The position numbers and the translations under genes are program-made. Shown piece after piece: positions 3,827 through 22,731 of a DNA stretch of 44,012 nt. The notes below the pieces were generated by a model. That model worked only from the letters and a program-made list of their open reading frames with translations, ran no database searches and had not been told where the DNA came from. Source of the DNA: Candidatus Peribacteria bacterium (GTDB lineage: Bacteria > Patescibacteriota > Gracilibacteria > Peribacterales > Peribacteraceae); NCBI GenBank assembly GCA_009691305.1, contig SICS01000003.1, positions 1-44,012 on the forward strand. The letters are read 5' to 3'. Numbering within the stretch: the first letter of the stretch is position 1; each line of letters starts with the position of its first letter.

Positions 3827-3869
3827 TGGCTCCCCCGGCCCCTCTCCGCGCTTCGCGCTACGCCGGGGC
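3827..3869. repeat. Copy of tRNA-Asn 3' end (att-like) fused to a palindromic REP-like insert
   Basis: TGGCTCCCCCGG is identical to 22657-22668. It is followed by ccccggc...cgcgcttcgcgctac...gccgggg, a hairpin. Confidence 0.65.
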
Positions 3870-3920
3870 CTCGGAGGAAGTGAAAGAATCCTGGCGGCTT
3901 TTGTGAAAGTTAAAATATTC

Positions 3921-3950
3921 TGGCTCCCCTGACTGGCTGTTTTCCGAACT
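3921..3950. repeat. att-like junction type A (TGGCTCCCC-N15-CGAAC)
   Basis: TGGCTCCCCTGACTGGCTGTTTTCCGAACT; 28/30 identical to 20073-20102. Confidence 0.85.
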
Positions 3951-4017
3951 TCTCGGAATATACCATACACTCCGTCAGTACTGTCCTCCTATCATGACTT
4001 AATTCGGAATATCTTGG

Positions 4018-6000
4018 TTATTCTCTGGTCTTCAGATGAGCCATATGCCTCTGCAAGATCTGCTGGAACGCTGAGGGGAATTCCTCGACACTCGCCGGAA
4101 TAACACTCTCTTGACCGAAGTGGAATTTCACCATTCCGGCGATATCTGGTTCGGGGGTGATAGCCGTGCCTTCCATTGGGGTTTTCTGACGTGCTGCATC
4201 AGCAGCATCTCTTGTCTCCGAGGCTTGCGTGGTGCTATCGGTGATAAAGACCATCAGAGAACCGATGCGTTCGGCTTCGGTACGCATTTGCTGCTTCTTT
4301 TTCACGATGCGAGGCAGGGCCACATTGATCGCATTCGCATCTTCATTATCTCCTCCAAAATCATGCAGCATCGTCATGAGGCGCGATTTCACACGACCAT
4401 CGTACGCTTCGTCGAAACCCTTAATGAGATATTTCTCATCATCACCAATATTCTTGTTGTCACTCGCGAGAATTTCTATGGCCACGCTGTGATCCTTCGA
4501 GCCTTCGCAGGTCTCAATGCAGGATTTCACTGCATTTTCGATGCGTTGACGATCCTGATACATCGAGCCGCTGACATCGATGAGAACTTGCAGAATGAGA
4601 GCAACATTCTCGGGGATTTTCCTTTTACCGAGGGGTTTTTCCTTACCGGTGTTTTTTCGACGGATAAGGTTCATGACACTGAAGCGGATACCCTTTGTGC
4701 CATAGACGTATTGCGGTTCGATAATTTTGGGTACGAACCGTTGGAAAACACGCTTCATTTGGTTTGTACCGGGGATGACTTGTTTTCTATATTCCTCGTA
4801 TTCCTCACGGAGTTTCGGATCTTCAAAACCATCGCGGTTCTTTTTAAGGAGATGATCCGCATCATCGCGCTTCCCTTTTGCATCAGTGTTTTTCTCCGCC
4901 TGATCTTTCTTTCCCTTCGCTTCCTTCTCTAAACGTTTCTGATGCTTCTCAATCATCTTCTGGAGAATTTGCTTCAAATGATCAGGCCATGAGGAAGGGT
5001 CTCGCGGATTGAGAGGCGGATCGCCCTCGGGAATTTTCGGCTGGCCTGTACCTTCCTCCGGCTGGTCTGCATTTGGTTCACCTGTAGATCCCTCTTCCCC
5101 CTCGTCGCCTTCATCTTGGTTTTTCTTCTGGGAAGAAGGTGGAAACTCATCGAGCAATCGTTTCATTGCCGGCCAGAGATGATCGACAATCAGCTTTTCC
5201 ACCTCTGCATTGACCTTCATTGGTGGGAGCGACGCATCGCCGGTAATTTTTGCGATGATTGGTTCAATCTTCTTGTATTCCTCAAGTGCTCGCGGATGGA
5301 GGTCATCGAGACTCCACGGCTTCTCTGTCCCTTTGAGTTCCTTCGCATGCAGTGCCCAGAGTCGTTCAAGCTTCATCATGAATCCCAGCTGTTCTGCGGG
5401 AGACATTTTCCCTTTTGCAATTCCCTGGGCGATATTCGGGATGATCAACTGCCTGTTTTTCTCGAAAAGCTGCAAACGCTGGTTATCGCGCAGCGGCCCT
5501 CCTACCAAGCGTTCCATGCGCGGATCTTCCACAAGATTATCGAGCTGCAGGAGGTGCTTGGGATCGTGGCCATCCCTTTCCGCAAGGCTCCTAAATCGAT
5601 CGCAACGGCTGAAATCCGTCCATTCGGCATGGCCACGCTCATGGGCGATCTCGCCGCGAAGGAAGTCCTTGGATGCTCCGCCTGCCGCGAAGATGAAAGG
5701 AATGCCGATGAGATACGTTTTTTTGCTGGGATCATCAACAATTTCCCCCGCATTCGTTGTTTTCTTTCCCGGCACTTGAGCGCAACAGAACGTATCGAGT
5801 TTCGGATCGGTATAAATTTCGATGCTGCGGTCGGGCGCTTGGGCGGAGCGTTCAAGATCCAACAGGAGCTGATCAACTTGCTCGGCAGTCATGTTCTTCA
5901 TGTTGTCCTTCAATTTCTGCATGAATGCATCCGCGTCGCCGAGGATCGACTCAGGCGGATTGTCGTTGTCAGGCCCGTGTTGCGGTTGATGGATGGACAT
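4018..6000 (-). CDS. vWA-domain protein with N-terminal HExxH metallopeptidase-like domain (CobT/NorD-like MoxR partner)
   Basis: AHERGH then NLVEDPRME, an acidic linker, MIDAS LIDVSGSM, and a later FITDS. Confidence 0.85.
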   Translation of the reverse strand: MSIHQPQHGPDNDNPPESILGDADAFMQKLKDNMKNMTAEQVDQLLLDLERSAQAPDRSIEIYTDPKLDTFCCAQVPGKKTTNAGEIVDDPSKKTYLIGIPFIFAAGGASKDFLRGEIAHERGHAEWTDFSRCDRFRSLAERDGHDPKHLLQLDNLVEDPRMERLVGGPLRDNQRLQLFEKNRQLIIPNIAQGIAKGKMSPAEQLGFMMKLERLWALHAKELKGTEKPWSLDDLHPRALEEYKKIEPIIAKITGDASLPPMKVNAEVEKLIVDHLWPAMKRLLDEFPPSSQKKNQDEGDEGEEGSTGEPNADQPEEGTGQPKIPEGDPPLNPRDPSSWPDHLKQILQKMIEKHQKRLEKEAKGKKDQAEKNTDAKGKRDDADHLLKKNRDGFEDPKLREEYEEYRKQVIPGTNQMKRVFQRFVPKIIEPQYVYGTKGIRFSVMNLIRRKNTGKEKPLGKRKIPENVALILQVLIDVSGSMYQDRQRIENAVKSCIETCEGSKDHSVAIEILASDNKNIGDDEKYLIKGFDEAYDGRVKSRLMTMLHDFGGDNEDANAINVALPRIVKKKQQMRTEAERIGSLMVFITDSTTQASETRDAADAARQKTPMEGTAITPEPDIAGMVKFHFGQESVIPASVEEFPSAFQQILQRHMAHLKTRE

Positions 6001-6005
6001 GAGTA

Positions 6006-6803
6006 TTACGAAGGAATGTTTTTAGGCATGTGATTTTCACGGTATTTCTCGATTCGCGTCTGTACGGCCTCATCGCTCACGCTGTTCACACGATGGAGAA
6101 GCAAGAGCCCACGATGCCGAGCCAGTACGCTTGCGGACTTCACGGACACGAGTGACGGGAGACCGAGGGACAGCGCTCCCTGCACCTGACAAAGCTCCGA
6201 CAAAATATCCGGATCCTCCGTATCCACATTGTCCAAAATGAGGTCACCTTTATGCTGTTTCATGAGTGCAGCATGCGTCTTGGTCAGTCGTGTCACCTTC
6301 GGAAGACTCAACATTTCGCGGTGCCGGCCAAAGATCGACGCTGTTTCGTCAGTGATCTGTTCCAAGGAATCAAAGTTCAGAAATACATTCCTTGCAACTA
6401 GAATATTTGCCGCGCTGGGAGTGAGGCTTTTCAGCTTCGAAAAATTGAGCGAAGGGACATCTTTGTGGTTCACGATCAGAGAAGCAATGTCAGCGGGCAG
6501 AACCGTCAATCCGGAAAAATGTCTGATATTCCCCTGACGAATTTCTTCGAAAATCGAGACATTCTTCCGCATTTCATCCGTTTCCGTCACTGACGCGCAC
6601 GCTGTACGCGCCGCCACGCGCACATCATGCATTTGTTCATCGGTCACGGGCGCATCAGCTGCTACTTGTTTATGAATCACCCCGAGCGATGTAAGAACAT
6701 CCTTGGATGCTTCTGCAGACAACTCCATCCCCGGCGCTTGCGAGCTTCTTGGCTCTTGCGCGTCATCTTTCTCTTCCCGATAGGTGTTAGGGAATGCATT
6801 CAT
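6006..6803 (-). CDS. LRR-like repeat protein, paralog 5
   Basis: Start MNAFPNTYRE 4 nt after the previous stop; about 23-aa repeats such as LNFDSLEQITDETASIFGRHREM. Confidence 0.8.
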   Translation of the reverse strand: MNAFPNTYREEKDDAQEPRSSQAPGMELSAEASKDVLTSLGVIHKQVAADAPVTDEQMHDVRVAARTACASVTETDEMRKNVSIFEEIRQGNIRHFSGLTVLPADIASLIVNHKDVPSLNFSKLKSLTPSAANILVARNVFLNFDSLEQITDETASIFGRHREMLSLPKVTRLTKTHAALMKQHKGDLILDNVDTEDPDILSELCQVQGALSLGLPSLVSVKSASVLARHRGLLLLHRVNSVSDEAVQTRIEKYRENHMPKNIPS

Positions 6804-6807
6804 TGGA

Positions 6808-8040
6808 TTATGAAGAAAAATCAGGGGGAGGAAGGCCGTACTGTTCCATGACTCTGCGATGTTTTTCCCGCGCTGCCTCATCACGAGCTGCATCCGTATA
6901 CGACATATACGTATACTCACTGTCTGAGTGCAGTTCGGTCTGGTCAATCACGCCGTAGTACGGACTATCCACTTCTCTTTCAGCCAAAATTCGCAAGACC
7001 TCATCATCCTTTTCTCGTGTCAGGCGCAAATTACTCATTTCCAATTTTCCAGGCATTTTCGCCAATGCACTGGCGATGTCCGCATGCAGCTCTCGTAAGC
7101 CTTGCAGACTCACGCCATCCGAATGAGTTGCGATAATCTCTGCCTGTTCGATCGTGAGCGATTCGTAGCCAAGCACCAATCGTCCTTGTGTTTTCACCAG
7201 CTCCTGAAGAATTTCCGTTGGCATGTCTTTCCACGTTCCCACATGAAGCCCCCCAGCATGCTTGCTCAGTTCGCGTGCGGCTTCGAGTGACATGTGTTCT
7301 ACGCCAAAAATAACGAGATCCTCCTGATGCTCACCCAGAGCCTTGGCGGCACGAGTGGAATTCAGAGAAGAAATATTGAGCGAAAGAAAATATTTTAATT
7401 GTGCCAATTCTTCCAGCACATCATCCGGAGGATTTTCGAGATTGTAAAACATCAGTCCTCCAGCATGTCTTTTGAGCAATGCCGCCTGCTTTTGGGTCAG
7501 TGTCTTCACTCCCAAACTCAGGCTACTGCCCGTGTGCTGCGCAAATTCCTCCGCAAGGTCATCGGAGAGCTCTTCAAGACTGTAGAGGTCGACCCTGTCG
7601 ATATTGCGAAATTCTTTAGCCGCATCTACCGATAAAGATTTCAGCATAGGCAAATTACATGAGTCGGTATTTTTCTTCGCGATTATTTTTGCGATGTTGG
7701 TCGGGAGGTACGTCAACTGATAGATGCCGTACATATCCTCACCACTTGCGATCTGCTCCCACACTTTTTTGTTATTTTCCAAATCCGGCACATGGGGCAA
7801 TGTGCTGAGAGAAATCTGAGCAGGGCCGACATCCACAATCAGGCCATGTAATGCACCCCGCACTTTTTCCATGTCACTCGCCATTAAGGAGCCATCATGT
7901 GCAATGCCGTGTGCGACACTTTCCATCTTTTCTAGCAAAATCTGCCCTTCGGGTGTTTCGGAGACGGGCGTGCGATTTCCATCCGCGTTTTCGGATTCTT
8001 TTTCGTGTTCGTCCCGATGGATGTTCGGTGTAGGAGGCAT
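6808..8040 (-). CDS. LRR-like repeat protein, paralog 4
   Basis: MPPTPNIHRD start; repeats such as VDLYSLEELSDDLAEEFAQHTGS. Confidence 0.82.
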   Translation of the reverse strand: MPPTPNIHRDEHEKESENADGNRTPVSETPEGQILLEKMESVAHGIAHDGSLMASDMEKVRGALHGLIVDVGPAQISLSTLPHVPDLENNKKVWEQIASGEDMYGIYQLTYLPTNIAKIIAKKNTDSCNLPMLKSLSVDAAKEFRNIDRVDLYSLEELSDDLAEEFAQHTGSSLSLGVKTLTQKQAALLKRHAGGLMFYNLENPPDDVLEELAQLKYFLSLNISSLNSTRAAKALGEHQEDLVIFGVEHMSLEAARELSKHAGGLHVGTWKDMPTEILQELVKTQGRLVLGYESLTIEQAEIIATHSDGVSLQGLRELHADIASALAKMPGKLEMSNLRLTREKDDEVLRILAEREVDSPYYGVIDQTELHSDSEYTYMSYTDAARDEAAREKHRRVMEQYGLPPPDFSS

Positions 8041-8048
8041 GGTAGTGA

Positions 8049-9359
8049 TCAGATATAGGGATGTTTTTGTACTTCTTTTTCTATTGCAGGGGAAAGATAT
8101 GTCCCGAAAACGTGTTGCTTAAAAGCGTGAGCCGCACGGTCGGAAATGGAAGTCAAACCTCGCAGGCCGATGGAATAGTGATGATCCCTCAAGGCCTGAA
8201 TTGTTTCTTGAGAAAGCTCAGGCAGAGCCGGAAGCTTTTCCAGCATTAGGCTTTGTTTGTTCTTGAGGAGAGATCGGAATTGTTTGTCCGAAAGAGACGT
8301 TAGTCCATAAAGAGCGATATCACCGTTATGGTTGGCAATCCAACGAACAGTTTCTTCCGAAAATTCAGGTAAGGTCGTGATCTTACTCAAGGACAACGTA
8401 TCTTTGGGACTATGGAGAAGACTACGAAATTCCGAATCAGAAATAGTCTCCAAACCCATCGAAAGACAGCCCCATTCCCTGTTGGACAGAGCGTTCTCCG
8501 TCTCTTTCGATAGAGCTGGAAGTTTTTTGATGCCATCCAATCGAATAGTGTTGCGCCGCTTGGAAAGCAGCTGCCTGAACTGTTTATCAGAAAGCGAGGA
8601 AATACCATCAAGCGACAAGTGAGCTTCATGATTCTCTAAAGCTCTGAGGACATCGTCAGAAAGTTCGGGGAGAGAATGCAGGCCATCGAGCCCAAGATCC
8701 CCGGTAATACTGAGCAACATTTGCAATTCCTGGCTGGAGATTGAGTTCAGCCCAGTAAGTCTGAGAGAGTCGCGTCTTCCGGAAGACAGAGCTTGTATGT
8801 TTTGTTCCGATAATGGAGGTAAGGATGACAGACCATCCATCTGCAATCCTCTCTTGCCACTGCGAAGAGCGAAGAACTGCTTTGTAGAAATAGATTGGAA
8901 TCCGTTCAGTTCTATATACTTGTGGTTATCTCCCTGTAGAAGTCCTGCAATGGTTTCGTCGGACAATTTCGTAATGAGCGGAAATTTGAGAAAATAATCC
9001 TGATCTTTTGCGAGAGCGATCGCAATCGCCGGCGGAAGAATGGTCAGCTTGCTATGATTTGCGGATTTCCCATCCAAAATTTCCCTCCAAATTTTTCCAT
9101 TTTGTTTCAGCTCTCCGTCTTCGAGAGTAAATGTTCTTCCTTCCACCGTGACTGATGCGCCTGCAATGGCAGATTCCAAGCTCTGAATGTGGGCTTGGTT
9201 CATTGGCGCATCCTGAGAAATATTCCGTTGAACAGATTCCAGAGTAGAATCAACGATTTTCGATGTAGGTGACGTCGATAACTCAACGTGCGCGGACGCG
9301 TTGGGGTCTGGCGTTTCATCTTCTATATTTTCCCGATGGATATTGGAGGTGATAGACAT
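8049..9359 (-). CDS. LRR-like repeat protein, paralog 3
   Basis: MSITSNIHRE start; alternating repeats LxLDGLxSLPxLS and LxLxGLxSIS. Confidence 0.82.
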   Translation of the reverse strand: MSITSNIHRENIEDETPDPNASAHVELSTSPTSKIVDSTLESVQRNISQDAPMNQAHIQSLESAIAGASVTVEGRTFTLEDGELKQNGKIWREILDGKSANHSKLTILPPAIAIALAKDQDYFLKFPLITKLSDETIAGLLQGDNHKYIELNGFQSISTKQFFALRSGKRGLQMDGLSSLPPLSEQNIQALSSGRRDSLRLTGLNSISSQELQMLLSITGDLGLDGLHSLPELSDDVLRALENHEAHLSLDGISSLSDKQFRQLLSKRRNTIRLDGIKKLPALSKETENALSNREWGCLSMGLETISDSEFRSLLHSPKDTLSLSKITTLPEFSEETVRWIANHNGDIALYGLTSLSDKQFRSLLKNKQSLMLEKLPALPELSQETIQALRDHHYSIGLRGLTSISDRAAHAFKQHVFGTYLSPAIEKEVQKHPYI

Positions 9360-9388
9360 TGCAGAAATGCAAATGGTTTCAAATAATC

Positions 9389-10705
9389 TTAGTCTTTTAA
9401 GTCAGCTTCTTGCCGCATTTTTTTGATACGTATGTGTAGGTCAGAGCAACCGCCAATCCTCGCCTTTCCCTTTGCCAAAGCCTGTATTCCCAAATCTGAA
9501 ATAGTACGCAATTCTGAGAAATATACTTCTCCATCATGCCGGGATAGCGACTGAGCTTGTGCGTCGGTGAGAGAACTCACTTTCCCAAGATTCAGTTTTC
9601 CCTTGTGCTTCGAAAATGATTCCGCCTGTGCATCGTTCATACTTTCTAAATACCACAATGACAGATTATCAGAGACCTTGGACAGGGCTTCGGCAGAACG
9701 ATCAGTGAGTTGTGTTACCCCGAGCGTTACTGATTTATTCCCGGTTGCAAGAGAGACGATTCCCGTTTCAGAAATTGAACGTAGACGAATGAAGTCAAGC
9801 TCACCGCCGTAATTTTCCAGAAATTTTGCTTGAGTATTGGAGAGAACAGTAATTCCAAGTTTTAAATGTGTTCCCACATACTTACTCTTACTTTTGGTAT
9901 GTTTCGCCAGCGATGCTAACTGCGCATCTGTGATTTGTTCCAATTCGCCAAAATTGATGTACGACTCTCCATCCTCATACTTGCGGACGAACTCATCTAT
10001 ATCGACGTTGCCAAAGCGAGTGACGTTCGCAAGATTCATCTTCCCCTCATGCTTGAAAAGGTGAGCGAGTGCCCCGTCAGAAAGAGTCTTCAGACCTGCA
10101 ACATTAAGGTAACCTCGATGCTTGCTCAATTCTTTTGCAGCGTCCTCTGAAAGATCCTTCAGACGACAGAGCCAAAGTGCATCGCCAGCATGTCTTGCGA
10201 GTTCTTTTGCAACTTCAGGAGTGATGGACTGCAATTCATTTAAACGAAGTTGTTTTGGGGATCGCGCAAGAATCCGAGCTGTTTCGGGCGTTAGTTTCCG
10301 AAGACCAACTAAGTACACAAAGTGCCCCCTATTGAGGTGTACTATTTTCTCCGCAACAGGCTCTGTTATAAGAGTCATTTTTTCAATCTCCATCGTGTCT
10401 TCGTCAGACAAAACAGCCTTCCATATTCGAATGTTTTCTTTGTGTTCGGGATTAGTTTTCAATTCGGGAAGAGATACTTTTTCCCCTCCGACTACAACCA
10501 TAGTATTTTCAAGTTCTTCACGAAAATGATGAATGTCCTTCCCAAGCACCGGATGATTGTGTTGAATCTTCGCTTCGATGTCTTCAGGTGGCTTTAGAAG
10601 CGACTGAGCGCTCGTCGATGATTCAATCTCCAAAGGAATGCTAGGCGTACTGTTTTCGCCTTGCTGATCGTGTTCGTCCCGATGGATGTTGGGGGGTGTA
10701 CTCAT
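9389..10705 (-). CDS. LRR-like repeat protein, paralog 2
   Basis: MSTPPNIHRD start in ATGA overlap with the upstream gene; repeats such as LRLNELQSITPEVAKELARHAGD. Confidence 0.82.
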   Translation of the reverse strand: MSTPPNIHRDEHDQQGENSTPSIPLEIESSTSAQSLLKPPEDIEAKIQHNHPVLGKDIHHFREELENTMVVVGGEKVSLPELKTNPEHKENIRIWKAVLSDEDTMEIEKMTLITEPVAEKIVHLNRGHFVYLVGLRKLTPETARILARSPKQLRLNELQSITPEVAKELARHAGDALWLCRLKDLSEDAAKELSKHRGYLNVAGLKTLSDGALAHLFKHEGKMNLANVTRFGNVDIDEFVRKYEDGESYINFGELEQITDAQLASLAKHTKSKSKYVGTHLKLGITVLSNTQAKFLENYGGELDFIRLRSISETGIVSLATGNKSVTLGVTQLTDRSAEALSKVSDNLSLWYLESMNDAQAESFSKHKGKLNLGKVSSLTDAQAQSLSRHDGEVYFSELRTISDLGIQALAKGKARIGGCSDLHIRIKKMRQEADLKD

Positions 10706-11925
10706 GGTTTTTCCTGAATAGCGGGACAAAAAACTTTGCCATGGAACTGAATTTTTGCCTTATTCCTCAGAGGATCATTCAGCCACTCCTGCACTTCCGA
10801 CGGGAACGAGGAAAAATCCACATTCACAAAGTACAAATTTGCACCTTCACATTTACAGAGGGCCCTTGCTGCCTCTGGAGTCATTGCTTCCACTGCAGGA
10901 CAAAGTAGATAACCCTTAAATCTATGGAATGCTTTTGCAACTTCAACGTGCATCGCAGCCAAATTCGCTAGATAAAGCTCAACGTTTGGATCCAATGTTG
11001 CAAGATGTGCCGCCGCCTCCGGACTCAGACCGGTAACCTCTGCCAACGCCAAACGGCTTCCTTTGAAATGAGAAATACCACGCGCAGCTTCAGGCGTCAG
11101 AACAGTCAGATTCGATAAGGTCAATAACTTGATGTGTGATCGTCCTATACCTTCCGCTTCATCAGCCGTAAGAGCAGTCAGTCCCAGCATTACATGCCAG
11201 ATTTCGCAATCACTCAATGCTTGTGCTGCTTCCGTAGAGAGTGACTGCACACCGCGAAGATAGAGGTCTTCACCCCTGAATGTTGCCAATGCCTTTGCCG
11301 CAGTGGGACTGAGTTTTTTTAATCCATTGAGACTCAATATTTTTACATCACAGCCAGCCAGCTCCTCGGCTACGCTGTCTGAAATTGACCCGAGATGATC
11401 GAAAGAAATTACGCCTTTAATATTCTTGTTTTGGCGGATTGCTCTTGCGGTTTCGACAGGTAATACATTTACTTTGTCACAATTCAGATCAGGCCCCGGT
11501 AGTTTCGCTGCGACAGCGGGGGGAAGGAACGTAATGTCGCCATCTTCATACGGCCAAACTTTCCCTTCAATCATATATTGCCATTGATCGTTTTCATCGA
11601 AGTCTTGCAACGCAATAGAACCGAGCTGTGCCGTACGAGGCGTGATGATGGGCTCACCACCAGCTGCCCAAGGAACGCTCTTTGGTACTTCCACTCGTGT
11701 TCCCACTTGAACTGGCAAAACTCGCAACGAATCTGATAATTGCGTGAGATCATCATTCTTGATCGTCTTGTCATGCATAACCGCTTGATGCGCTGCGCTC
11801 AATGTTTGCAGGAGAGACGTAAGCTGCGTTCCCTCTGTTATAGGCAACCGGAGCGCATCAGAATTTTCTCCGCTTGCGGCGGGTGCATCTGAATCCCTGT
11901 GAATGAGGGGGCGATTCTGGTTCAT
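10702..11925 (-). CDS. LRR-like repeat protein, paralog 1
   Basis: MNQNRPLIHRD start; repeats such as LSLNGLKKLSPTAAKALATFRGE. Confidence 0.82.
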   Translation of the reverse strand: MNQNRPLIHRDSDAPAASGENSDALRLPITEGTQLTSLLQTLSAAHQAVMHDKTIKNDDLTQLSDSLRVLPVQVGTRVEVPKSVPWAAGGEPIITPRTAQLGSIALQDFDENDQWQYMIEGKVWPYEDGDITFLPPAVAAKLPGPDLNCDKVNVLPVETARAIRQNKNIKGVISFDHLGSISDSVAEELAGCDVKILSLNGLKKLSPTAAKALATFRGEDLYLRGVQSLSTEAAQALSDCEIWHVMLGLTALTADEAEGIGRSHIKLLTLSNLTVLTPEAARGISHFKGSRLALAEVTGLSPEAAAHLATLDPNVELYLANLAAMHVEVAKAFHRFKGYLLCPAVEAMTPEAARALCKCEGANLYFVNVDFSSFPSEVQEWLNDPLRNKAKIQFHGKVFCPAIQEKP

Positions 11926-11934
11926 GGGGAGTCA

Positions 11935-13872: not shown

Positions 13873-14002
13873 AGGCAAGGTTGGAAAATGATGGATGTGT
13901 GTTTTCTCTACATATTTTAGCAGAAATAGCAAGTTTGCGGAAGGGGAAGTATCGCAAGTTCTACTACATGATTGAGTGCTTTAATTTACCAAACGAACCC
14001 AA

Positions 14003-15672: not shown

Positions 15673-15721
15673 CCACAACCAACCGCCGATGTGAAGTGAT
15701 CGACGGTTGTGAGCGTGCGAA

Positions 15722-16900
15722 TTATTGTTGGATGTCTGTCTCTGCGAGGAGAACATCAATTGCATCAAGGTCTGATGCCAATCGTGAGATATCCACCAGT
15801 GCTTTATCCTTACGACCAAGCTCGAATTCCATACCATTTTTGCTCGGTAGAGAATCAATCGCATTCAGATCGATGCCATGGTGAGCGAGGATCGCGCAGA
15901 TGTTTTCGAGAAGGCCAATGTGGTCCTTGCGTGCTGTGAGGTGGAGAGATTTTTTGCGGATGTTCCCCAATCGAACGATTATGGTGTTCGTTTTTGCTCT
16001 CATCCGTGTGCGCCATATCTTCTGTGGATCCAGTCTATCGCGAGCATCTTCGATAAATGCGGGAAGTTTTCGTTCTTCTTTCGGCCGATCTTTATCGTGC
16101 TGTGCCAGCTCCAGTATGCGCTGCATGGATACGATAACTTGCTCAAGTTCGGATTTGCCTTCCTTCGAAGAAGCCATATTGGCTATGAGGCTTGCCTGCA
16201 AATGGGCGTCAAGTGTCATGCCTCGACCGACGGAGAGCATGAAGAGTTCGGAGTTTGGCGAGCACAATCGATCCAAGTCATCAACCGTGTGGCCATCGCT
16301 CAGGCCACTCCCTATGGCCACGCAGCCTGCGACTTGCAAAAAGTGAGGCATTCCTTGAATCGGTCTCATCAATCGGTCATGCACTTCAGCTTGCATCCAG
16401 TGAATTGTCATTTCTTGACTGCGGAAAAATGCTTCGCCGATCATGTCGGCTTCTTTTGATCTCTCACTGACCGGACAAATGATGCCGTTCTGTCCGCGCA
16501 GGGAAGGGGGATCCGGCGGCACACCTGTCATCGGATGAATGGACCCGAACAATGCCGTTCCATCGTTGCTATCTATTTCTTGCACTAGGTTGATAAAGCC
16601 TTCTTTCGATGATCCGATGTCGATCACAATTTGGTTTGGTCGTAGTTTCGCGCGCATCTCGAGGATGATTCCAGGGATGGCATCGAGCGGAGCGGAGAGA
16701 AATATGATGTCTGCACGCTCGGTAAGTTCATCGAGCGGCACATGAGGGAAATTCGGTTCGGTTTTTGCTCGGACGGGATCCGACTGCAGCATCGGATGAA
16801 GAGAATGAAGCGATACTGTTTGCACCAAATGCTTGCCCCACTTGCCGACGCCGACAACGCCAACGGTTCGCTTGCCGATAATGTTTGATAGTGATTCCAT
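15722..16900 (-). CDS. tyrA: Prephenate dehydrogenase with C-terminal ACT domain
   Basis: GVGKWG Rossmann motif, DIGSSK, HPMTG, HD..M..IQ..PH; ACT-like DHIGLLENIC...GIDLNAIDS. Confidence 0.85.
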   Translation of the reverse strand: MESLSNIIGKRTVGVVGVGKWGKHLVQTVSLHSLHPMLQSDPVRAKTEPNFPHVPLDELTERADIIFLSAPLDAIPGIILEMRAKLRPNQIVIDIGSSKEGFINLVQEIDSNDGTALFGSIHPMTGVPPDPPSLRGQNGIICPVSERSKEADMIGEAFFRSQEMTIHWMQAEVHDRLMRPIQGMPHFLQVAGCVAIGSGLSDGHTVDDLDRLCSPNSELFMLSVGRGMTLDAHLQASLIANMASSKEGKSELEQVIVSMQRILELAQHDKDRPKEERKLPAFIEDARDRLDPQKIWRTRMRAKTNTIIVRLGNIRKKSLHLTARKDHIGLLENICAILAHHGIDLNAIDSLPSKNGMEFELGRKDKALVDISRLASDLDAIDVLLAETDIQQ

Positions 16901-17027
16901 AATTGAGAAAAGAAAAAGAAATACAAGAAAGGAAAATTACGCATCGATAGCGGTACGCACTCGCATCGCAGATGAGCTCGTAGTAGGTGGAACGGCCGAT
17001 CATGAAGGGGAATATATGCATACGTAC

Positions 17028-17052
17028 AAAAAACCCCGCGGATGCGAGGGCT
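17028..17052 (-). terminator. Attenuator intrinsic terminator upstream of tyrA
   Basis: Minus strand reads AGCCCTCGC-ATCC-GCGGGG-TTTTTT. Confidence 0.75.
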
Positions 17053-17079
17053 GAAATAATCGTGGTCAGATACAGCAGC

Positions 17080-17139
17080 TCACATCCGTGTGGAGCGGGT
17101 GTAGTAAGAAGAGATAATGATACAACAGGACTTTTTCAT
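17080..17139 (-). promoter_or_regulatory. Leader peptide MKKSCCIIISSYYTRSTRM (putative Tyr attenuator)
   Basis: 19-codon ORF with tandem TAC TAC. CGGATGTGAG can pair with CTCGCATCCG of the terminator as an antiterminator. Confidence 0.72.
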
Positions 17140-17148
17140 GATAGGGTA

Positions 17149-17176
17149 ATTTTACATTTTATAAGCTTAATGTCAA
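17149..17176 (-). promoter_or_regulatory. Sigma70 promoter for leader-tyrA
   Basis: TTGACA-16 nt-TAAAAT, ending 9 nt before the leader ATG. Confidence 0.6.
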
Positions 17177-17315
17177 GGATGGCTCGACGTGGTTCAAGCT
17201 ATTCGAATTAGCTACGACTTCGTTTCGAATGCTATTCGAATGTAACAGCAGGGCACTATCAACAATACGAAAGGACGCCAGCACAGAGTGCTGACGTCCC
17301 CTGCTGCAGGTTTCC

Positions 17316-17747
17316 CTACAGCTCGTAGTTCTTCTTGACCGCAACGACGTTCTGCACCCAGGCGTCGGCCTCGTTCGGCGTGCCATTCAGATCGTTATAG
17401 CACACCATGGACGGCTCCTTGGCGGTGTATTCGATTTCGCCGTCAGCCGTCCTCAACTTCTTGACGTTGCCGGGCTGGAGGATGTTTTGGTCATCCACCC
17501 AGATCGGCAGCTTGTCGTAGAGGCCTGGCTTGGAGCCGGGCATCCAGCCGATGGGAGCCGTTTTGTCGGCGTTCGGCTGAACGAGGTGGCTGATCTCCGT
17601 ATCCGACGATGTCTTCAGAAAGGCCCCGTTGGGTGCCTGCTGGAGATTGTCAGCGGAGTTTCCCCACTCTGACCGCTTGTCGATCGTGACTGGGCTGGGG
17701 CAGAAGAAGAACCGAACGTCGCGCTGCTTGGACAAAAGCTTTCGCAT
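17316..17747 (-). CDS. Hypothetical protein
   Basis: 143-aa ORF with AGGAG Shine-Dalgarno, biased codon use and a consensus promoter upstream. Confidence 0.75.
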   Translation of the reverse strand: MRKLLSKQRDVRFFFCPSPVTIDKRSEWGNSADNLQQAPNGAFLKTSSDTEISHLVQPNADKTAPIGWMPGSKPGLYDKLPIWVDDQNILQPGNVKKLRTADGEIEYTAKEPSMVCYNDLNGTPNEADAWVQNVVAVKKNYEL

Positions 17748-17809
17748 GATTTATCTCCTATGCGAAAAGGGTGAAGGAACTACAAGGAGACAAAATGCCT
17801 CCTTGTATT

Positions 17810-17838
17810 ATTATACAATATCAATTTTAAAATGTCAA
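17810..17838 (-). promoter_or_regulatory. Consensus sigma70 promoter adjoining the att core
   Basis: TTGACA-17 nt-TATAAT starting 4 nt from the tRNA-end copy, followed by the inverted repeat TACAAGGAG/CTCCTTGTA (17781-17807). Confidence 0.8.
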
Positions 17839-17842
17839 ATTA

Positions 17843-17878
17843 TGGCTCCCCATCCTGCGCCTTCTGCGAACGGATTGG
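17843..17878. repeat. att-like junction type B
   Basis: TGGCTCCCCATCCTGCGCCTTCTGCGAACGGATTGG; one mismatch versus 21593-21628. Confidence 0.88.
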
Positions 17879-18085
17879 ATGCAGGAAATACGAGAGCTTG
17901 AACTCGCCCTCAAAGAGATTCGTTTCCTGCTTGTGACCGAGCAACCCACACTGACTACTTCTTTCAGTGCGAGGAACTAAACGCGACGTAGAAACTGAAC
18001 GAACCGACGATGCTACCAAACGTCCGTTAAAGCGCAGTTGAGTCCGCAGAGCAGTGGCCATTGATAGCGAGGGCATAGTTCTTGC

Positions 18086-19168
18086 TTATCCAGTAGGCAA
18101 CTCTGTTTCCGTATTGGCTGATGTTTCACCGAGCACTTTGAAGCTATTATAGAATTTCACGAACTGCGAGTCATCCACTGCGCCGTTGCTGATAGCGTAA
18201 ATGGAATCTGATGTTTCAATGTACACGACTTTGCTAATCCAATCCGCATACTGCTTTGTTGTCACTGTGACGAGCAATGCGTCGTGGCCATCCACCTGAA
18301 TGGTTTTTCGTGACTCGGCTCTGTCAGCAAATTGGTCGCCCATACCTTGTATGACAGTTTCAAGGTTGGTGCTGGATTTTTTATAGACACCGATACCCCA
18401 AATCAGACCACCTGCTTTGGACTCTTCTGTACCAAATCCAACGCCTGTACTGTCCCCATAGTCATCCTCACTTGTAATCCAATTGCTTGGATAGAGCACC
18501 GAAAAATGCAGAGAATTGCTTGTATACGTTTTCCATGTGTCGCTCTTTGCGGTAGCTAATTCCTGATATGTTGCAGAGGGTTTAGTTTCAATGTGAGCAC
18601 GTAGACGATAAATTATCTCTGCCATCTCGCCTCTGGTGATAAGTTGGTCAAACGAGTGAACGGATGTGGGAATAGCATGTCTCTCGCCCAGTTCAACAAT
18701 GAACGGCGCGTACCAAGGTGAATCTATTGCAGGCTGATCAAACCCAAACGACCTCATGATGATTTTTGAAGCCTCTGCGAAATTGATTGTATTGTTCGGC
18801 TTGAATGTGCCGTCGGGATAGCCGTCAATGAGGTGCGAGAAGTGCGCAGAAATGACGTATGGGAAGAACCAATCTCTATCAATGTTCACGTCAGGAAATG
18901 TCATAGTTACGCCCATCGGTGTGTCAGTGGGCAGTCCTTGTGCGCCGACAATGATTTTTACGAACTCTGCTCGGTTGATGGTGTTGTTCGGCTTATACGT
19001 TCCATCAGGATACCCAGACACAATTCTTTCCTGTTGGGCGTAGACGATAGCGTCGTAGTTCGCATGGTTTGAGACTACATCAGGGAAACTAGCAAAAACC
19101 GTTCCTTGTAGCGCAAAAAGACCGACAGCCAACAGACTTATATTAGTTACAGCTTTCATAGTAATCAT
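18086..19168 (-). CDS. S-layer homology (SLH) domain protein with C-terminal PsbP-like domain
   Basis: Signal peptide; GYPDGTYKPNNTINRAE twice and ITRGE; WKTY...FSVLYPSNW. Confidence 0.85.
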   Translation of the reverse strand: MITMKAVTNISLLAVGLFALQGTVFASFPDVVSNHANYDAIVYAQQERIVSGYPDGTYKPNNTINRAEFVKIIVGAQGLPTDTPMGVTMTFPDVNIDRDWFFPYVISAHFSHLIDGYPDGTFKPNNTINFAEASKIIMRSFGFDQPAIDSPWYAPFIVELGERHAIPTSVHSFDQLITRGEMAEIIYRLRAHIETKPSATYQELATAKSDTWKTYTSNSLHFSVLYPSNWITSEDDYGDSTGVGFGTEESKAGGLIWGIGVYKKSSTNLETVIQGMGDQFADRAESRKTIQVDGHDALLVTVTTKQYADWISKVVYIETSDSIYAISNGAVDDSQFVKFYNSFKVLGETSANTETELPTG

Positions 19169-19303
19169 AGGGGCGATGTAGAGAGTTTAGCACATTGAAT
19201 ACTTGAAGACCTTGTTTGTAAATAGACGCAATTTGCATGTCTTTACAGTGCTCAATATAGATTCGTACCTCGATGAGGGCGTAGCCAGTCAGTCTCGACA
19301 AGT

Positions 19304-19789
19304 ATGTATCCTAGGAATAATGTTGGGTGCATGAATAATGCATTTCCTTTGTTGCACTCATTTTTTGGAGTCGAGACTGCCTTCGCCAATCCAATTCCTT
19401 ATGGCAGTGTTAGTAGCCCAGCCCAACTAACGTCCGCTGCATTTCTACTTTCACTAGGTTTTACTGTTGCAATAGAGCTTGTTGTTGTTCTGATAATTTC
19501 TTCAATTTTCTTGCGACGGCAAAACATCAGCAAATCACGACTACTACTTTCTGCTATTGTTGCTTCAACGATCACACTACCTCTTCTCTGGTACGTCTTT
19601 TTGCCGCGGGGGGCTAATGTAATTCTTCTTGAAGTTGCTGTCGTTATGATAGAGGCTCTTCTTTATCGTTATATTTTGCCGACACGTTGGAATTACGCTC
19701 TCCTACTTGCGGTTATTGCCAACGTCGTTTCTTTTTTGGCTAGTCCAATACTCGCCACTTATATTGTCGGAACAAATCCATATCTCTAA
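19304..19789 (+). CDS. Small integral membrane protein
   Basis: About four TM segments, with TVAIE, ITLP, E.....E and AN..S motifs. The start may be 19331. Confidence 0.7.
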   Translation: MYPRNNVGCMNNAFPLLHSFFGVETAFANPIPYGSVSSPAQLTSAAFLLSLGFTVAIELVVVLIISSIFLRRQNISKSRLLLSAIVASTITLPLLWYVFLPRGANVILLEVAVVMIEALLYRYILPTRWNYALLLAVIANVVSFLASPILATYIVGTNPYL

Positions 19790-19834
19790 ATTGATTAACC
19801 TTCTTGTAATCAGAGCATTTTCGGCGGCTCATAG

Positions 19835-20081
19835 GGTAGCATTACCGCTGATAAGTACGACAATTTGATAGAGGAATATAAGGCGCATAGGCCGCGTTTT
19901 TGGAAGAATTACAAGGTCACGCGATGCCGAGCTTTCACGCGTTCGCAACCCGACCAAATGAACCAACTGCTGCGCTTCGTGCTTGCGAACGGCAAAGTGG
20001 AAGGCGAAAAGCTCATCTACGAGCTGAAAAGTCCGTACTCGGGTATCGCACAGTGTGTTAAAAACTAAAGTATGGCTCCCC
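19835..20081 (+). pseudogene. Large serine recombinase C-terminal remnant (internal deletion and frameshift)
   Basis: GSITADKYDNLI...NQLLRFVLANGKVEGEKLIYELKSPYSGIAQCVK, homologous to 22363-22671. An extra A lies just before the WLP core. Confidence 0.75.
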
Positions 20082-20102
20082 CGGCTGGCTGTTTTCCGAA
20101 CT
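20073..20102. repeat. att-like junction type A
   Basis: TGGCTCCCCCGGCTGGCTGTTTTCCGAACT. Confidence 0.88.
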
Positions 20103-20165
20103 GAGGACAATATTCGTTCATCTCCGACAATTGAATGTGGTTTCTCATTTGTCGAGACGAATAAA

Positions 20166-21557
20166 TTAGTGGAGCAAGGATTGTCGGTCGGGAAGTGACC
20201 GAATATTCTTGTTATAGCTGCTTTTCAATAGTTCTAGCGCCTTGTCTGCTGGATGAACGTCCGCCTTTTTGCATGCTTCTACAATGCCTAAAGCAGAGTT
20301 ATCGGATAGGGCAATATCTTTGAGCGCTCGATGTCCGCAGATCGAATACGCACTGTAAGGATTCTCCAAGTCAATACCTCCCTGAGAGCGTACTATCTCG
20401 CGATGTGCTTCCAAATGAGCGGCATGGTTGCAGAAAGCACGGAACGCGCGATCTTTCTCGTTTGCTCGAATAAGCTTCTCCATTTGCTGAATGGTTCCAC
20501 CGACCTGTCCGGATAATTCAGCAATGCCGATATACAGACTGGAAGATTTTATGCCATCCGTGCGGAATTGTTTCCACAAGATCAGAAGCTCCCTTGCCCC
20601 CGGAGCAAGTAGCGCTTCAACGCCGATATCCATTTCGTTTGCACTAGGATGATGTTTACTGAATTCATGAATGTAAGAGCGATCGTGAGCATGTTCGATT
20701 TCTTCAAAAAGAAGACGTTCGCCTTCCATGTTCGTTGCAAATTCTTCAGGGGTCATTGAACGGACGTACTGCTGCAGTTCAACGTCAAAAGGATTCTCAG
20801 GTTTTTCTGTTATGCGTTTATAGCTGTTTTTCGCATCGACATAGAGTTGTCTCGGATCAATGAAAATATACCTACCAACAGCATGACCTGGAGATCCGCC
20901 TTCTTTCCACTTAACGATGACTGCGAACGCTGATTCTCCAATGGGCGCAGGAAATTCTCGCCAGCTTGAATCTTCAACATCTCCTTCCCAAAACTCCGGC
21001 TTGATATTGCTTCCGAATTTTGCAGGAAAAAATACTGTTCCACTCGGCAAACAGAGATGAGCGTTAAATGCTATTGCCGCTCTATGAATGAGGACGAAGG
21101 GGTCATCTGTATTGAGATCAGGTTCAAACGATGGATTGAGAGCATGAGACTGACGCAAGAATTGTACTACGGTTTCATGCTTCAATTTTTGCAAAGACAA
21201 ATCATCCACAATTGTACGCAGAACTCCTTGAAGGGCTTGAACTTCTTCGCGGGGAATATTAACGTTCAGTTCCAACGGTTTCGATGCTTCTTCGGCAAGT
21301 AGTGTCGGTGGAATGAGGCAATCAAGAGGGACTAACGCAGCCTCATCTCGCCCTTTAGTCATAAGCAACTCTTTCAATTCAAATCGAGCGATGTCGTAAT
21401 GTGCTCGTAATCTCGATTTAATTTCCAATTGGCGCTGATGCTGATGTTCGGGCATTTTTTCTTTCCTTCGCTTCGCATTCTTTTCGCACGCATTAAGTTG
21501 CGATAGTTCACCCTCAAGCTTAGCCAATTCAGCATCAGGAAGTTTCGCTAGATCCAT
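20166..21557 (-). CDS. Hypothetical protein, sole cargo of a cassette
   Basis: 463-aa ORF filling the interval between two att-like sites; coiled-coil N-terminus. Confidence 0.75.
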   Translation of the reverse strand: MDLAKLPDAELAKLEGELSQLNACEKNAKRRKEKMPEHQHQRQLEIKSRLRAHYDIARFELKELLMTKGRDEAALVPLDCLIPPTLLAEEASKPLELNVNIPREEVQALQGVLRTIVDDLSLQKLKHETVVQFLRQSHALNPSFEPDLNTDDPFVLIHRAAIAFNAHLCLPSGTVFFPAKFGSNIKPEFWEGDVEDSSWREFPAPIGESAFAVIVKWKEGGSPGHAVGRYIFIDPRQLYVDAKNSYKRITEKPENPFDVELQQYVRSMTPEEFATNMEGERLLFEEIEHAHDRSYIHEFSKHHPSANEMDIGVEALLAPGARELLILWKQFRTDGIKSSSLYIGIAELSGQVGGTIQQMEKLIRANEKDRAFRAFCNHAAHLEAHREIVRSQGGIDLENPYSAYSICGHRALKDIALSDNSALGIVEACKKADVHPADKALELLKSSYNKNIRSLPDRQSLLH

Positions 21558-21563
21558 ATTTTT

Positions 21564-21591
21564 ATATTACAACAATTATTTTATTAGTCAA
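21564..21591 (-). promoter_or_regulatory. Sigma70-like promoter adjoining the att core
   Basis: TTGACT-16 nt-TAATAT, with the ATG 6 nt later (probably leaderless). Confidence 0.55.
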
Positions 21592-21592
21592 A

Positions 21593-21628
21593 TGGCTCCC
21601 CATTCTGCGCCTTCTGCGAACGGATTGG
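21593..21628. repeat. att-like junction type B
   Basis: TGGCTCCCCATTCTGCGCCTTCTGCGAACGGATTGG. Confidence 0.88.
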
Positions 21629-21696
21629 TATGGTGCTATGCGTGATCTTACCCCTGCGCTGGACTCACTTATTCGCCCGCTACTCCTTGCTTCGGC

Positions 21697-22206
21697 CTAG
21701 TTCCAGAGCGAATCCCAGTTATTCAGGTATGGAGCGATTAGAGTGCTATGTTTTTTATCATCAAGATGGCGTTTTTTATTTTTATCACTATGTTTGCGGC
21801 CATCTTTTCCTGGGGTTTTAAGCCATAATTCATGTTCACTGGTAAGCCATGAAGAGAGCATCTTTGTCGGTACGACGTAGAAATGGAGCTTCTGAATTTC
21901 TGCGGCAAGATTGACCAGAATTGTGAAGTCCCGCCCTTTATCTAGCAGCCGAAAGATCGAACCGTCCTTGTGGGCGTTCCATTGCCAAATATCGTAGTCC
22001 TCGGATTTTGTCTTCACACGCAATCTCACATCTTTTCCATTTTTTGTAGCAAGAATGTCGAAAGCTGTGGCATTGCGCGGTGTTAGCGCAGCAATCACTC
22101 CGCGTTTCAAAAGTTCGGCCATGACATAGTGCTCACCGGCATTGCCAACAAGTGTTCCCTCGCCAGCCTTGATACGACCCTTCATATCGACAGAATACCA
22201 CTTCAT
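21697..22206 (-). CDS. PD-(D/E)XK-fold nuclease-like protein
   Basis: GNAGEHYVMAELLKRG...FDILA...RVKTK matches the restriction-endonuclease-like G..GE / D / xxK pattern. Confidence 0.75.
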   Translation of the reverse strand: MKWYSVDMKGRIKAGEGTLVGNAGEHYVMAELLKRGVIAALTPRNATAFDILATKNGKDVRLRVKTKSEDYDIWQWNAHKDGSIFRLLDKGRDFTILVNLAAEIQKLHFYVVPTKMLSSWLTSEHELWLKTPGKDGRKHSDKNKKRHLDDKKHSTLIAPYLNNWDSLWN

Positions 22207-22362
22207 AATTGGTCAGTCATCCGATCCAGTAATAAGGCCGTCTGTTGATTGAATATCAGACTATAGTCTGTAGAACAATAAGATTCAACCAATGTAAGTT
22301 GGTATAACTATGGCTACTATTTCTAAGGATCAGAACATAAAGAATTTTCAGATAGCGTTTGG

Positions 22363-22671
22363 AGTATTACCCACGATGAGTACGACAAACTGATTGTGGA
22401 TACGAAGACACGGGAAGAACAACTACACGATGAAATGCGGTCACATAGCAAGGCCGACGAAACGTTCCTCATATCGTGTTCCTACTTGCTGGAACTGCTT
22501 CAAAGGGCATCCGACCTTTTTGAGCGTTCGCAACCTGCCCAAAAGAACCAACTTCTGCGTTTCGTACTTGCGAACGCAAAGGTAGAAGGCGAAAAGCTAG
22601 TCTGGGACTTGAAAAGTCCGTTTTCTGGTATTGCCCAGTGTGTCAAAACGAAAGAATGGCTCCCCCGGTAG
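22363..22671 (+). pseudogene. Large serine recombinase C-terminal remnant reading into the tRNA 3' end
   Basis: SITHDEYD...LLELLQRASDLFE...KNQLLRFVLAN...GEKL...LKSPF...WLP, where WLP is encoded by the antisense of the tRNA end. Confidence 0.8.
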
Positions 22672-22731
22672 GATTCGAACCTACGACCGTCTCGTTAACA
22701 GCGAGCTGCTCTACCACTGAGCTACAGGGGA
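22657..22731 (-). tRNA. tRNA-Asn(GTT)
   Basis: TCCCCTGTAGCTCAGTGGTAGAGC...CTGTTAA...GTAGGTTCGAATCCTACCGGGGGAGCCA; 75 nt with encoded CCA. Confidence 0.97.

Follow-up and report, generated by a model that had tools for sequence, protein, structure and literature searches.

We analysed a stretch of 44,012 nucleotides (the window), which is the entire contig C22 of a Candidatus Peribacteria genome (G000; 1.07 Mb in 44 contigs, 98.8% complete), and found an array of cargo-bearing units lined up against the 3' end of its tRNA-Asn gene. The region 3827-22665 is probably a tandem pile-up of five units that arose by site-specific insertion at this tRNA end. Four of the five units belong to two cassette families, A and B, named after the arm at their left ends, and these two families are real. 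In the window, both B cassettes end in the 3' end of a gene for a large serine recombinase (LSR), and both A cassettes lack a recombinase and end in an inward promoter.

The units are delimited by the nine-base core TGGCTCCCC, which is the reverse complement of the tRNA-Asn 3' end and comprises the CCA, the discriminator and part of the acceptor stem. Six copies are present, all of them on the plus strand, at 3827 (J0), 3921 (J1), 17843 (J2), 20073 (J3), 21593 (J4) and 22657 (J5); by chance, 0.28 copies would be expected, and none of 100 shuffled sequences attained six. A sequence-only reading made before this analysis had counted five copies, all of which proved to be real, and had overlooked the sixth, at 3827. 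The six cores split the region into five units, and the sequences to the right of the cores are arm A at J1 and J3, arm B at J2 and J4, and the tRNA at J5. The layout is as follows:

3827-3835, plus strand: core J0, the outermost junction (chromosomal flank, core), with a 12-base match to the tRNA (TGGCTCCCCCGG)
3836-3920, plus strand: mini unit of type C with a GC-rich hairpin arm, 94 bp, bounded by 3827-3929
3921-17851, plus strand: cassette A1, 13.9 kb, with core J1, arm A at 3930-3950 and eleven minus-strand open reading frames (ORFs)
17843-20081, plus strand: cassette B1, 2.2 kb, with core J2, arm B, a 161-aa ORF and a decayed LSR tail
20073-21601, plus strand: cassette A2, 1.5 kb, with core J3, arm A at 20082-20102 and one ORF
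21593-22665, plus strand: cassette B2, 1.06 kb, with core J4, arm B, a 169-aa ORF and an intact LSR tail
22657-22731, minus strand: tRNA-Asn(GTT), predicted by ARAGORN and matched by Rfam RF00005 with 68.6 bits, the right half (B') of the bacterial attachment site attB

The cargo proteins are unrelated from cassette to cassette. The G+C content of the array is 0.435-0.552, compared with 0.56-0.61 in the DNA on its right, and the window contig has the lowest G+C content of all 44 contigs; this contrast marks the array as foreign DNA. In nine congeners, with about 70-80% DNA identity, the two flanks of the array are unlinked. Type C arms or units of 98-109 bp similar to the mini unit occur in G197, G168, G163 and the metagenome locus L143 (in these labels and below, G denotes a genome, L a locus, P a protein and X a metagenome run). 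Units of 94-109 bp, consisting of a core, a GC-rich hairpin arm and a short A-rich end, were seen singly or in tandem at array edges (window 3827-3929; L057 2749-2957; L041 3282-3391; L143 355-1430), and in L143 they additionally adjoin the tRNA.

To characterize both families in relatives, 200 genomes of the order were searched. Within the window, the arm A pattern CTGGCTGTTTTCCGAACT matched at 3933 and 20085 alone and the arm B pattern CTGCGCCTTCTGCGAACGGATTGG at 17855 and 21605 alone, with up to three mismatches allowed and at most 0.05 matches expected by chance in each case. Arm A (up to two mismatches) was found in 27 of the 200 genomes, with no match of the reversed control, and arm B (up to one mismatch) in 19, with one control match. 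The comparison of loci covered 22 of the 27 arm A genomes (all except G065, G072, G126, G156 and G160), all 19 arm B genomes and eight metagenome stretches; six of the 21 arm B sites meet a contig end before a second junction. When a cassette was counted as complete only if both junctions lay within a single locus, the right ends were distributed as follows:

Left arm B, 18 complete cassettes: 15 with an LSR or LSR remnant end, none with a promoter-type end (GTCAA/GTCTA), three with other ends (G098, a degenerate one in G166, and metagenome L143)
Left arm A or A2, 20 complete cassettes: one with an LSR remnant end (G113), 11 with a promoter-type end (GTCAA/GTCTA), eight with other ends

The type of the left arm thus predicts the type of the right end, with LSR-type ends in 15 of 18 arm B cassettes versus one of 20 arm A cassettes. 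Fisher's exact test (15/3 versus 1/19) gave a p of about 1e-6, a value that is overstated, as the genomes are kin and the loci were picked by the same features. This pairing supports the earlier proposal of two families whose left and right ends match and whose cargo is free. Arm A can also serve an LSR element, as the LSR remnant at the right end of the arm A cassette of G113 shows. The arm B cassette of G098 (L130, reverse complement, 1109-3585), which is devoid of an LSR tail, has 18 bases left of the core that are identical at both junctions, and it carries an SLH protein gene between two 64-aa ORFs that are 70% identical.

The B units contain the following features:

17843-17980, plus strand: arm B extension of B1 in the LSR frame, 45 open codons (WLPILRLLRTDW...), then a stop
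18086-19168, minus strand: gene for an SLH/PsbP_2 protein in B1
19835-20068, plus strand: LSR C-terminal remnant of B1, aligned by tblastn to residues 385-481 of protein P0001 with 48% identity
21593-21700, plus strand: arm B extension of B2, 35 codons
21697-22206, minus strand: ORF of B2, 169 aa
22363-22671, plus strand: LSR C-terminal remnant of B2, aligned by tblastn to residues 387-496 of P0001 with 92.7% identity

The recombinase remnant that had been noticed at the right ends of the B units is indeed the 3' end of an LSR gene. The right ends of B1 and B2 are homologous (125 nt, 82%), and both match the C-terminus of proteins of 496-521 aa with the domains PF00239 and PF07508. The tail of B2 is 96% identical to P0001, a full-length protein of 496 aa with both domains, and the alignment showed that the tail of B1 decayed through an internal deletion. 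The LSR frame of B2 crosses core J5 and stops inside the tRNA after ..KEWLPR; in full-length relatives, the frame goes on as ..WLPRLDSNQRP, which is translated tRNA. Both domains were found in P0001, P0002 and P0005 and in the genes in G136, G132 and G127. The B units of the window retain the last 80-110 LSR codons only, the resolvase catalytic and recombinase domains being gone, and they are derivatives and not functional LSR integrative elements. Since both have lost codons 1 to about 385 and all backbone genes, they are not capable of self-mobility.

Intact elements with the order arm B, LSR, core and tRNA-Asn, 7-14 kb long, are present in six genomes (G136, G132, G163, G164, G127 and G166). 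Three of them were annotated, and their common backbone encodes a Cro/C1-type helix-turn-helix protein, an unmatched protein of about 300 aa, a SpoVG-like protein, an unmatched protein of about 400 aa and the LSR; no phage structural genes were detected in these three elements. The variable cargo of the three annotated elements includes SLH proteins, a nuclease, a type I restriction system and a SocA-like antitoxin. Related LSRs of the order abut and read into the 3' ends of the genes for tRNA-Arg(tct), Gln, Ala, Val and Asn (loci L009-L038). In G163 (L057, 10685) and G166 (L054, reverse complement, 10020), the "tRNA" behind the full-length LSR is a 3' fragment of 40-odd bases, breaking after ..CGGTTA, which suggests a further insertion at another position of tRNA-Asn. 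In G002, an arm B cassette of 8.9 kb contains a tRNA predicted by ARAGORN (L040, 2918-2992) with the anticodon CTA and the label tRNA-Pyl, which would be an amber-reading tRNA as island cargo. The genome of the window also encodes a single unrelated LSR, on contig C40 in a region that resembles a prophage, and a single tyrosine recombinase, on contig C31. The former is a 488-aa protein (L007, about 24.3-27.1 kb) whose gene adjoins an apparent gene for a terminase large subunit, as read from the ORF alone, which suggests a prophage in this genome.

When arm B is read in the LSR frame, each of the 21 copies examined (two in the window and 19 in relatives) has a conserved extension that stays open for 33-50 codons; the extensions fall into two sequence types. 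In one closely related pair of cassettes, that at J4 of the window and one of G002, the similarity stopped exactly at the stop codon of the extension. The open and conserved extension argues that integration would swap the C-terminus of the LSR, which would be encoded by arm B on the joined form (the attachment site attP) and by the tRNA after integration.

The point at which the LSR genes are truncated is recurrent. Similarity to the LSR begins at one codon, in (R)ITHDEYDKL at about residue 385, in 13 of 18 genome remnants and in 10 of 16 short database proteins (the remnants concerned are those at 22363-22671 and 19835-20068 in the window, in loci L040-L053, and proteins P0006-P0022), and the DNA upstream of this codon is unrelated among the remnants. 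Full-length genes encode ..LDGR followed by IT.., with the codons GGGCGT, and most remnants have ..GAGA or ..GAGG before ATTAC. A tree of the tail region, in which bootstrapping fell short of full convergence, placed remnants and full-length genes intermixed in two clades with support values of 98/95 and 99/99; therefore, the same truncation arose at least twice. Most remnants are open across about 110 codons, and the start codon is not conserved. A pseudo-att site within the LSR gene was considered as the cause. The TGG and TG.G.AC spacing at the truncation point resembles that of arm B; the junction letters vary between remnants (GGAGA, TGAGA, GGAGT, GGAGC and others), and thus precise site-specific recombination does not explain the truncation. 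A shorter remnant was found in G007, which has NYN-domain cargo and a tail starting at residue 421, and L143 has the same cargo and arm B and no tail. The retained tail is possibly a functional module, either as a handle in cis or as an inhibitor in trans.

The features of the A units that bear on their right ends are the following:

17810-17838, minus strand: inward promoter at the right end of A1, TTGACA-17-TATAAT, 12/12 consensus positions, 4 nt from core J2
20166-21557, minus strand: ORF of A2, 463 aa, no family match
21564-21591, minus strand: inward promoter at the right end of A2, TTGACT-16-TAATAT, 9/12 consensus positions, 1 nt from core J4

With 12 and 9 of 12 sigma-70 consensus positions, the inward promoters that had been proposed for the right ends of the A units are real. 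The ORF of A2 starts (ATG at 21557) 7 nt past the second promoter hexamer. In relatives, 11 of the 20 A cassettes consist of a single ORF on the strand of the tRNA, which fills the unit from promoter to arm. The A units have no recombinase, and none of their ORFs in the window has a recombinase domain. Inside A1, neither a further arm nor a plus-strand core at one mismatch was found. Its Pfam matches are an AAA_5 ATPase, a weak VWA domain and a prephenate-dehydrogenase-like protein, the other proteins being unmatched. Close homologues of the dehydrogenase-like gene occur in six of 199 related genomes and in none of the nine congeners, and a homologue with 56% identity lies just outside the array of G195. 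The possibility that the right part of A1 is native chromosomal flank was rejected because of this patchy distribution, and it reads as cargo. Five tandem paralogues (6006-13932; 313-446 aa, 22-30% identical), unmatched in family searches and by PADLOC, sit in A1 between the weak VWA-domain protein and the AAA_5 ATPase.

Among all the cargo, PADLOC matched none of 15 proteins, and an NCBIfam search named the prephenate-dehydrogenase-like protein and nothing else. No tyrosine integrase and no recognisable replication genes were found in the units of the window; PF00589, the family of the integron integrase IntI, had no match in the window, and its sole match in the genome is on contig C31. Outside the array, a tmRNA gene at 36623-37041 has an unusually long predicted tag peptide of 31 residues.

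The arms have the geometry of attachment sites. The units are flanked by direct repeats of the shared core, which comprises at most seven bases where the arm and tRNA sides differ; these differences, seen in G132, G188 and G195, are at core positions 8-9, which places the crossover within TGGCTCC. GAAC occupies bases 26-29 from the start of the core in all A, A2 and B arms, and bases 21-24 in the tRNA, within TTCGAAC of the T-loop. For serine integrases, the available text of Rutherford et al. (2013; PMC3783163) describes a motif of the zinc-ribbon domain that is shifted 5 bp outward in attP compared with attB, and the arms fit this rule. The patterns later used for arm detection demanded GAAC at these positions, while the first arms had been found without that demand. 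Arm A is a conserved block of 30 nt. It looks like the end of tRNA-Asn from other genera (CGGCTGG-ATTCGAAC) into which five bases have been inserted, and it is closer to their tRNA-Asn (CGGCTGG...) than to that of its own genome (CGGTAGG). On these grounds of position and similarity, we read both arms as putative attP-type right half-sites of LSRs specific for tRNA-Asn. A tRNA-like or other conserved RNA fold on the transcribed strand of arm A was also considered and was rejected, as RNAalifold with 15 sequences yielded four invariant pairs, -0.88 kcal/mol and no covariation.

At the other side of the core, GTCAA lies at a distance of 10 nt in LSR ends of the P0001 type and of 1-5 nt in the right ends of A units, and a similar motif is present 2-5 nt from the core in chromosomal flanks. 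GTCAA was rejected as a general motif of the left half-site because other LSR subfamilies lack it (AACAAAAC... and AATAAAAG...).

Independent evidence for the units came from metagenomes. Five runs from three freshwater metagenome studies hold the region, and the Logan contigs of four of them were compared. A contig of X2 (6039 nt; 15563-21601) spans the end of A1, B1 and A2, including J2 and J3. Two contigs of X1 cover 13070-18311 (J2) and 18812-20121 (J3), one of X5 (17388-18541) spans J2, and one of X4 (19380-20307) spans J3; contigs of X1, X2 and X4 end at the J4 core. In record 31 of X5 (2089 nt, depth 5.85), position 21590 is joined to 22655 with 11 shared bases, so that B2 is absent and the promoter end of A2 lies directly on the tRNA, with at least 255 nt on each side of the joint. 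In X2 and X4, A2 is found behind a different promoter-like end (...TTAGTC), with loose ends at 20068. These results showed that B2 is a discrete unit that is gained or lost, and that A2 occurs in more than one context. Two further joints were discarded: that from 17841 to 22656, seen in one X4 contig of depth 2.2 with 28 nt on one side, was too weak, and that from 20088 to 22691, with 21 nt on one side plus 18 foreign letters, belongs to the tRNA of another organism.

We propose the following scenario. The B units would descend from LSR islands of 7-14 kb in which the LSR gene was proximal to the tRNA and its frame crossed the att core. In the integrated state, this LSR would end in tRNA-encoded residues, and in the joined state it would continue for 33-50 codons into arm B. 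The A units would be recombinase-less cargo cassettes with arm A at the far end and a strong promoter of their own at the tRNA-proximal core. New units presumably enter proximal to the tRNA and push older ones outward, as has been proposed for tycheposons in the available text of bioRxiv 10.1101/2020.12.28.424599; B2 would thus be the latest arrival, in agreement with its polymorphism and its intact tail. The A cassettes may be moved in trans by an LSR specific for tRNA-Asn, in the way in which Ccr moves SCC-like cassettes (SCC, staphylococcal cassette chromosome); taken on its own, we give this step an even chance. The enzyme would have to tolerate hybrid sites, and the order A-B-A-B would be a record of the order of arrival and not a rule. 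As the genome has no matching full-length LSR, the array is probably immobile here unless the enzyme comes from outside.

Several observations weigh against this scenario. Tandem insertion requires recombination between attP and a hybrid site, which is non-canonical; according to the available text of PMC3783163, canonical phage serine integrases do not recombine attP with hybrid sites. No recombinase domain was detected in the cassette ORFs of the window or in 35 cargo proteins from relatives, whose cassettes were of types A and C or of other kinds without an LSR, and neither a recombinase nor the tyrosine integrase IntI was present among 26 proteins flanking the A-only arrays of G195, G050, G191, G011 and G096. 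A full-length LSR of the tRNA-Asn type occurs in one of the 27 arm A genomes (G163) and an LSR remnant in three (G000, G113 and G197), and elsewhere in the genome of the window neither a homologous full-length LSR nor an N-terminal part of one was found. The left-half ends of the A cassettes have no motif at a fixed distance; because the distance of GTCAA varies (1-5 nt), it is a promoter box and no proven half-site. Homologues of the A2 cargo in five other genomes are not within arm-flanked cassettes. A viral contig collection had no match to either arm, which says nothing about phages outside that collection. The population evidence consists of assembled contigs, from which neither frequencies nor circles are obtainable and in which no circle junction appeared, and the variant lacking B2 could be a pre-insertion state instead of the result of excision.

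Some of these observations agree with an alternative explanation, namely that the A units are immobile leftovers of LSR islands, or host genes captured between relic att scars. It is favoured by the lack of a recombinase in or beside A arrays, by the absence of a matching full-length LSR from 26 of the 27 arm A genomes, by the A2 cargo homologues that are not arm-flanked elsewhere, and by a stepwise loss of the LSR end, for which the remnant in G113 and the units with NYN cargo and arm B in G007 (short remnant) and L143 (none) are examples. However, decay by chance accounts neither for the consensus promoter that lies right at the core in 11 of 20 A cassettes nor for the length of exactly one gene in 11 of 20. 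In addition, the four arms of G195 are identical over 30 nt and their cargo is unrelated, arm A is nearer to the tRNA-Asn of other genera than to that of the window, and A2 is found in nature behind two different neighbours (X2 and X4). We consider this explanation unlikely.

The sequence-only reading had also offered the possibility that compatibility of the arms forces A and B units to alternate. In such a model, the right end of an A unit is an attB-type left half, the attL-like site of an A circle enters only the attR of a resident LSR element, and the inserted A unit recreates an attB-like site beside the tRNA for the next B element. All junctions in the window would fit, with an LSR-type end and arm A at J1 and J3, a promoter end and arm B at J2 and J4, and an LSR end and the tRNA at J5, and the distances of GTCAA from the core (10 nt in LSR ends versus 1-5 nt in A ends) resemble the 5-bp shift between attP and attB. 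The order of units in relatives speaks against it. Among 12 typed neighbour pairs, seven are A-A, two are B-B and three are mixed, and all three mixed pairs lie in this window. The A-A arrays are A-A-A-A before the tRNA in G195, A2-A-A2 before the tRNA in G050, and A-A in G191 and G014; B-B arrays are present in G164 and G166, and metagenome locus L147 has an LSR-type end followed by arm B. Outside the window, arm A follows an LSR-type end once, namely the short, LSR-tail-like type C end of G197, and the remaining arm A junctions in relatives come after ends of different types. GTCAA is moreover absent from the ends of other LSR subfamilies and variable in its distance in A ends. Two of the six possible orders of two A and two B units alternate by chance, and nine of the 12 pairs are of the same type; therefore, alternation is no rule and is not statistically notable. 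Forced alternation is very unlikely.

A further possibility raised earlier was that a composite of A and B, extending from arm A to the LSR tail, is the mobile unit and was inserted twice. The junction of such a circle (LSR end, core and arm A, as in J3) would resemble a canonical attP: its left half would be of the P type, and arm A, with its 5-bp shift, would imitate the half-site of the tRNA. However, B2 alone is missing in record 31 of X5, no contig skips A2 and B2 together, the autonomous elements of six genomes have arm B and not arm A opposite the LSR, and the two supposed copies have no cargo in common. Relatives typically have A-only arrays and B-only elements, and neither circular nor transferred A+B units with an internal junction were seen among the sequences compared. 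A composite unit is thus highly improbable. That the assembly threaded strain variants through short repeats can be dismissed almost entirely, for although contigs of several runs break at the J4 core, as expected for a branch of the assembly graph, identical repeat runs reach about 26 nt at most, independent contigs of X1, X2, X4 and X5 span J2 and/or J3, and long contigs from other genomes carry comparable arrays.

In the candidate phyla radiation, bacterial genomes are tiny, and to our knowledge little is known about how these bacteria gain genes. In the case described here, a single tRNA landing pad carries 19 kb of foreign DNA, about 1.8% of the genome, in separable units, and both site designs recur among relatives (27 and 19 of 200 genomes). 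The enzymes form a family of serine recombinases that target the 3' ends of tRNAs (Asn, Arg, Gln, Ala and Val), a niche that is usually ascribed to tyrosine integrases, and integration would switch the C-terminus of the recombinase itself. If their mobility is confirmed, the A cassettes would be a serine-recombinase counterpart of integron cassettes. A more far-reaching idea, which we put forward tentatively and regard as doubtful, is that Peribacteraceae possess an integron-like platform for gene capture that is built on a serine recombinase and adds promoter-led, mostly single-gene cassettes, each with one attP-type half-site, singly to a stack at the 3' end of tRNA-Asn, the retained LSR tail being functional and not debris, as a mobilisation handle in cis or as an inhibitor in trans that acts on incoming LSRs. 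The short and well-defined attP/attB pairs may be of interest for genome-engineering tools based on serine integrases. Literature searches, which did not extend to supplements, brought up no account of LSR cassette arrays beside the tRNA genes of candidate phyla radiation bacteria.

Several known systems share features with the array. In SCC and SCCmec elements at rlmH in staphylococci, some cassettes lack a recombinase, and a neighbour's LSR excises and circularises them (PMC11470126, available text). As in the array, the cassettes stand in tandem and are bordered by short direct repeats derived from a conserved gene's 3' end, and P0001 matches the NCBIfam models of CcrB, CcrA and CcrC weakly, far under their cut-offs. 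In contrast to SCC, the target is a tRNA and not rlmH, a single LSR takes the place of the CcrA/CcrB pair and its frame crosses att, and the recombinase-less cassettes are mostly single genes with their own promoter. For the array described here, mobilisation is a proposal drawn from sequence.

Islands at ssrA in Dehalococcoides also occur as multiple tandem islands downstream of a tRNA-like gene, bounded by its 3'-end repeat. According to the available text of McMurdie et al. (2011; PMC3146451), the 3' end of the LSR gene (DsiB) always overlaps the att repeat there, with the stop codon outside the island, and the authors considered that the recombinase may be fully functional only from the circularised element; both the overlap and the idea of a C-terminus switch are thus shared. 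Islands without an integration module were read there as cis-mobilisable and as gained by accretion. The differences are the phylum, the target (tmRNA) and its T-loop position, a repeat of 20 bp versus a core of 7-9 bp here, and an integration module of six genes there, one of which encodes a second, small recombinase, DsiA. In addition, the region past the repeat is divergent there (PMC3146451), whereas the extension is conserved and open in 21 of 21 copies here.

The concept of cis-mobilisable elements (CIMEs), as outlined in the same text (PMC3146451), likewise describes att-flanked units that lack recombination genes and lie beside an autonomous element of the same site. The A units have this trait, which they share with SCC, in that they have the same att core as the autonomous element and no recombinase of their own. 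They differ in that no autonomous partner remains in the genome of the window, and streptococcal CIMEs and their accretion use tyrosine integrases.

The tycheposons of Prochlorococcus are, in the available text (bioRxiv 10.1101/2020.12.28.424599), similarly targeted to tRNAs; they insert repeatedly at one tRNA, displacing earlier arrivals inward and leaving partial tRNAs and degraded integrases behind, and their cargo is variable. However, tyrosine recombinases occur in 910 of 937 tycheposons, which also have replication modules; some are phage satellites, and promoter-led single-gene cassettes are not described in that text. The likeness is one of behaviour only. With integrons, the array shares the ordered arrangement of mostly single-gene cassettes with free cargo at one site. 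The differences are that no tyrosine integrase IntI lies beside the array, that there is no folded site like attC, that each cassette has its own promoter, and that the site is a tRNA end with LSR-type half-sites.

In summary, the system belongs with the LSR-driven tandem islands, that is, with SCC arrays, ssrA islands and cis-mobilisable elements, and it is distinct in its tRNA 3'-end target, its conserved and switchable LSR C-terminus, and its widespread promoter-led, mostly single-gene cassettes without a recombinase.

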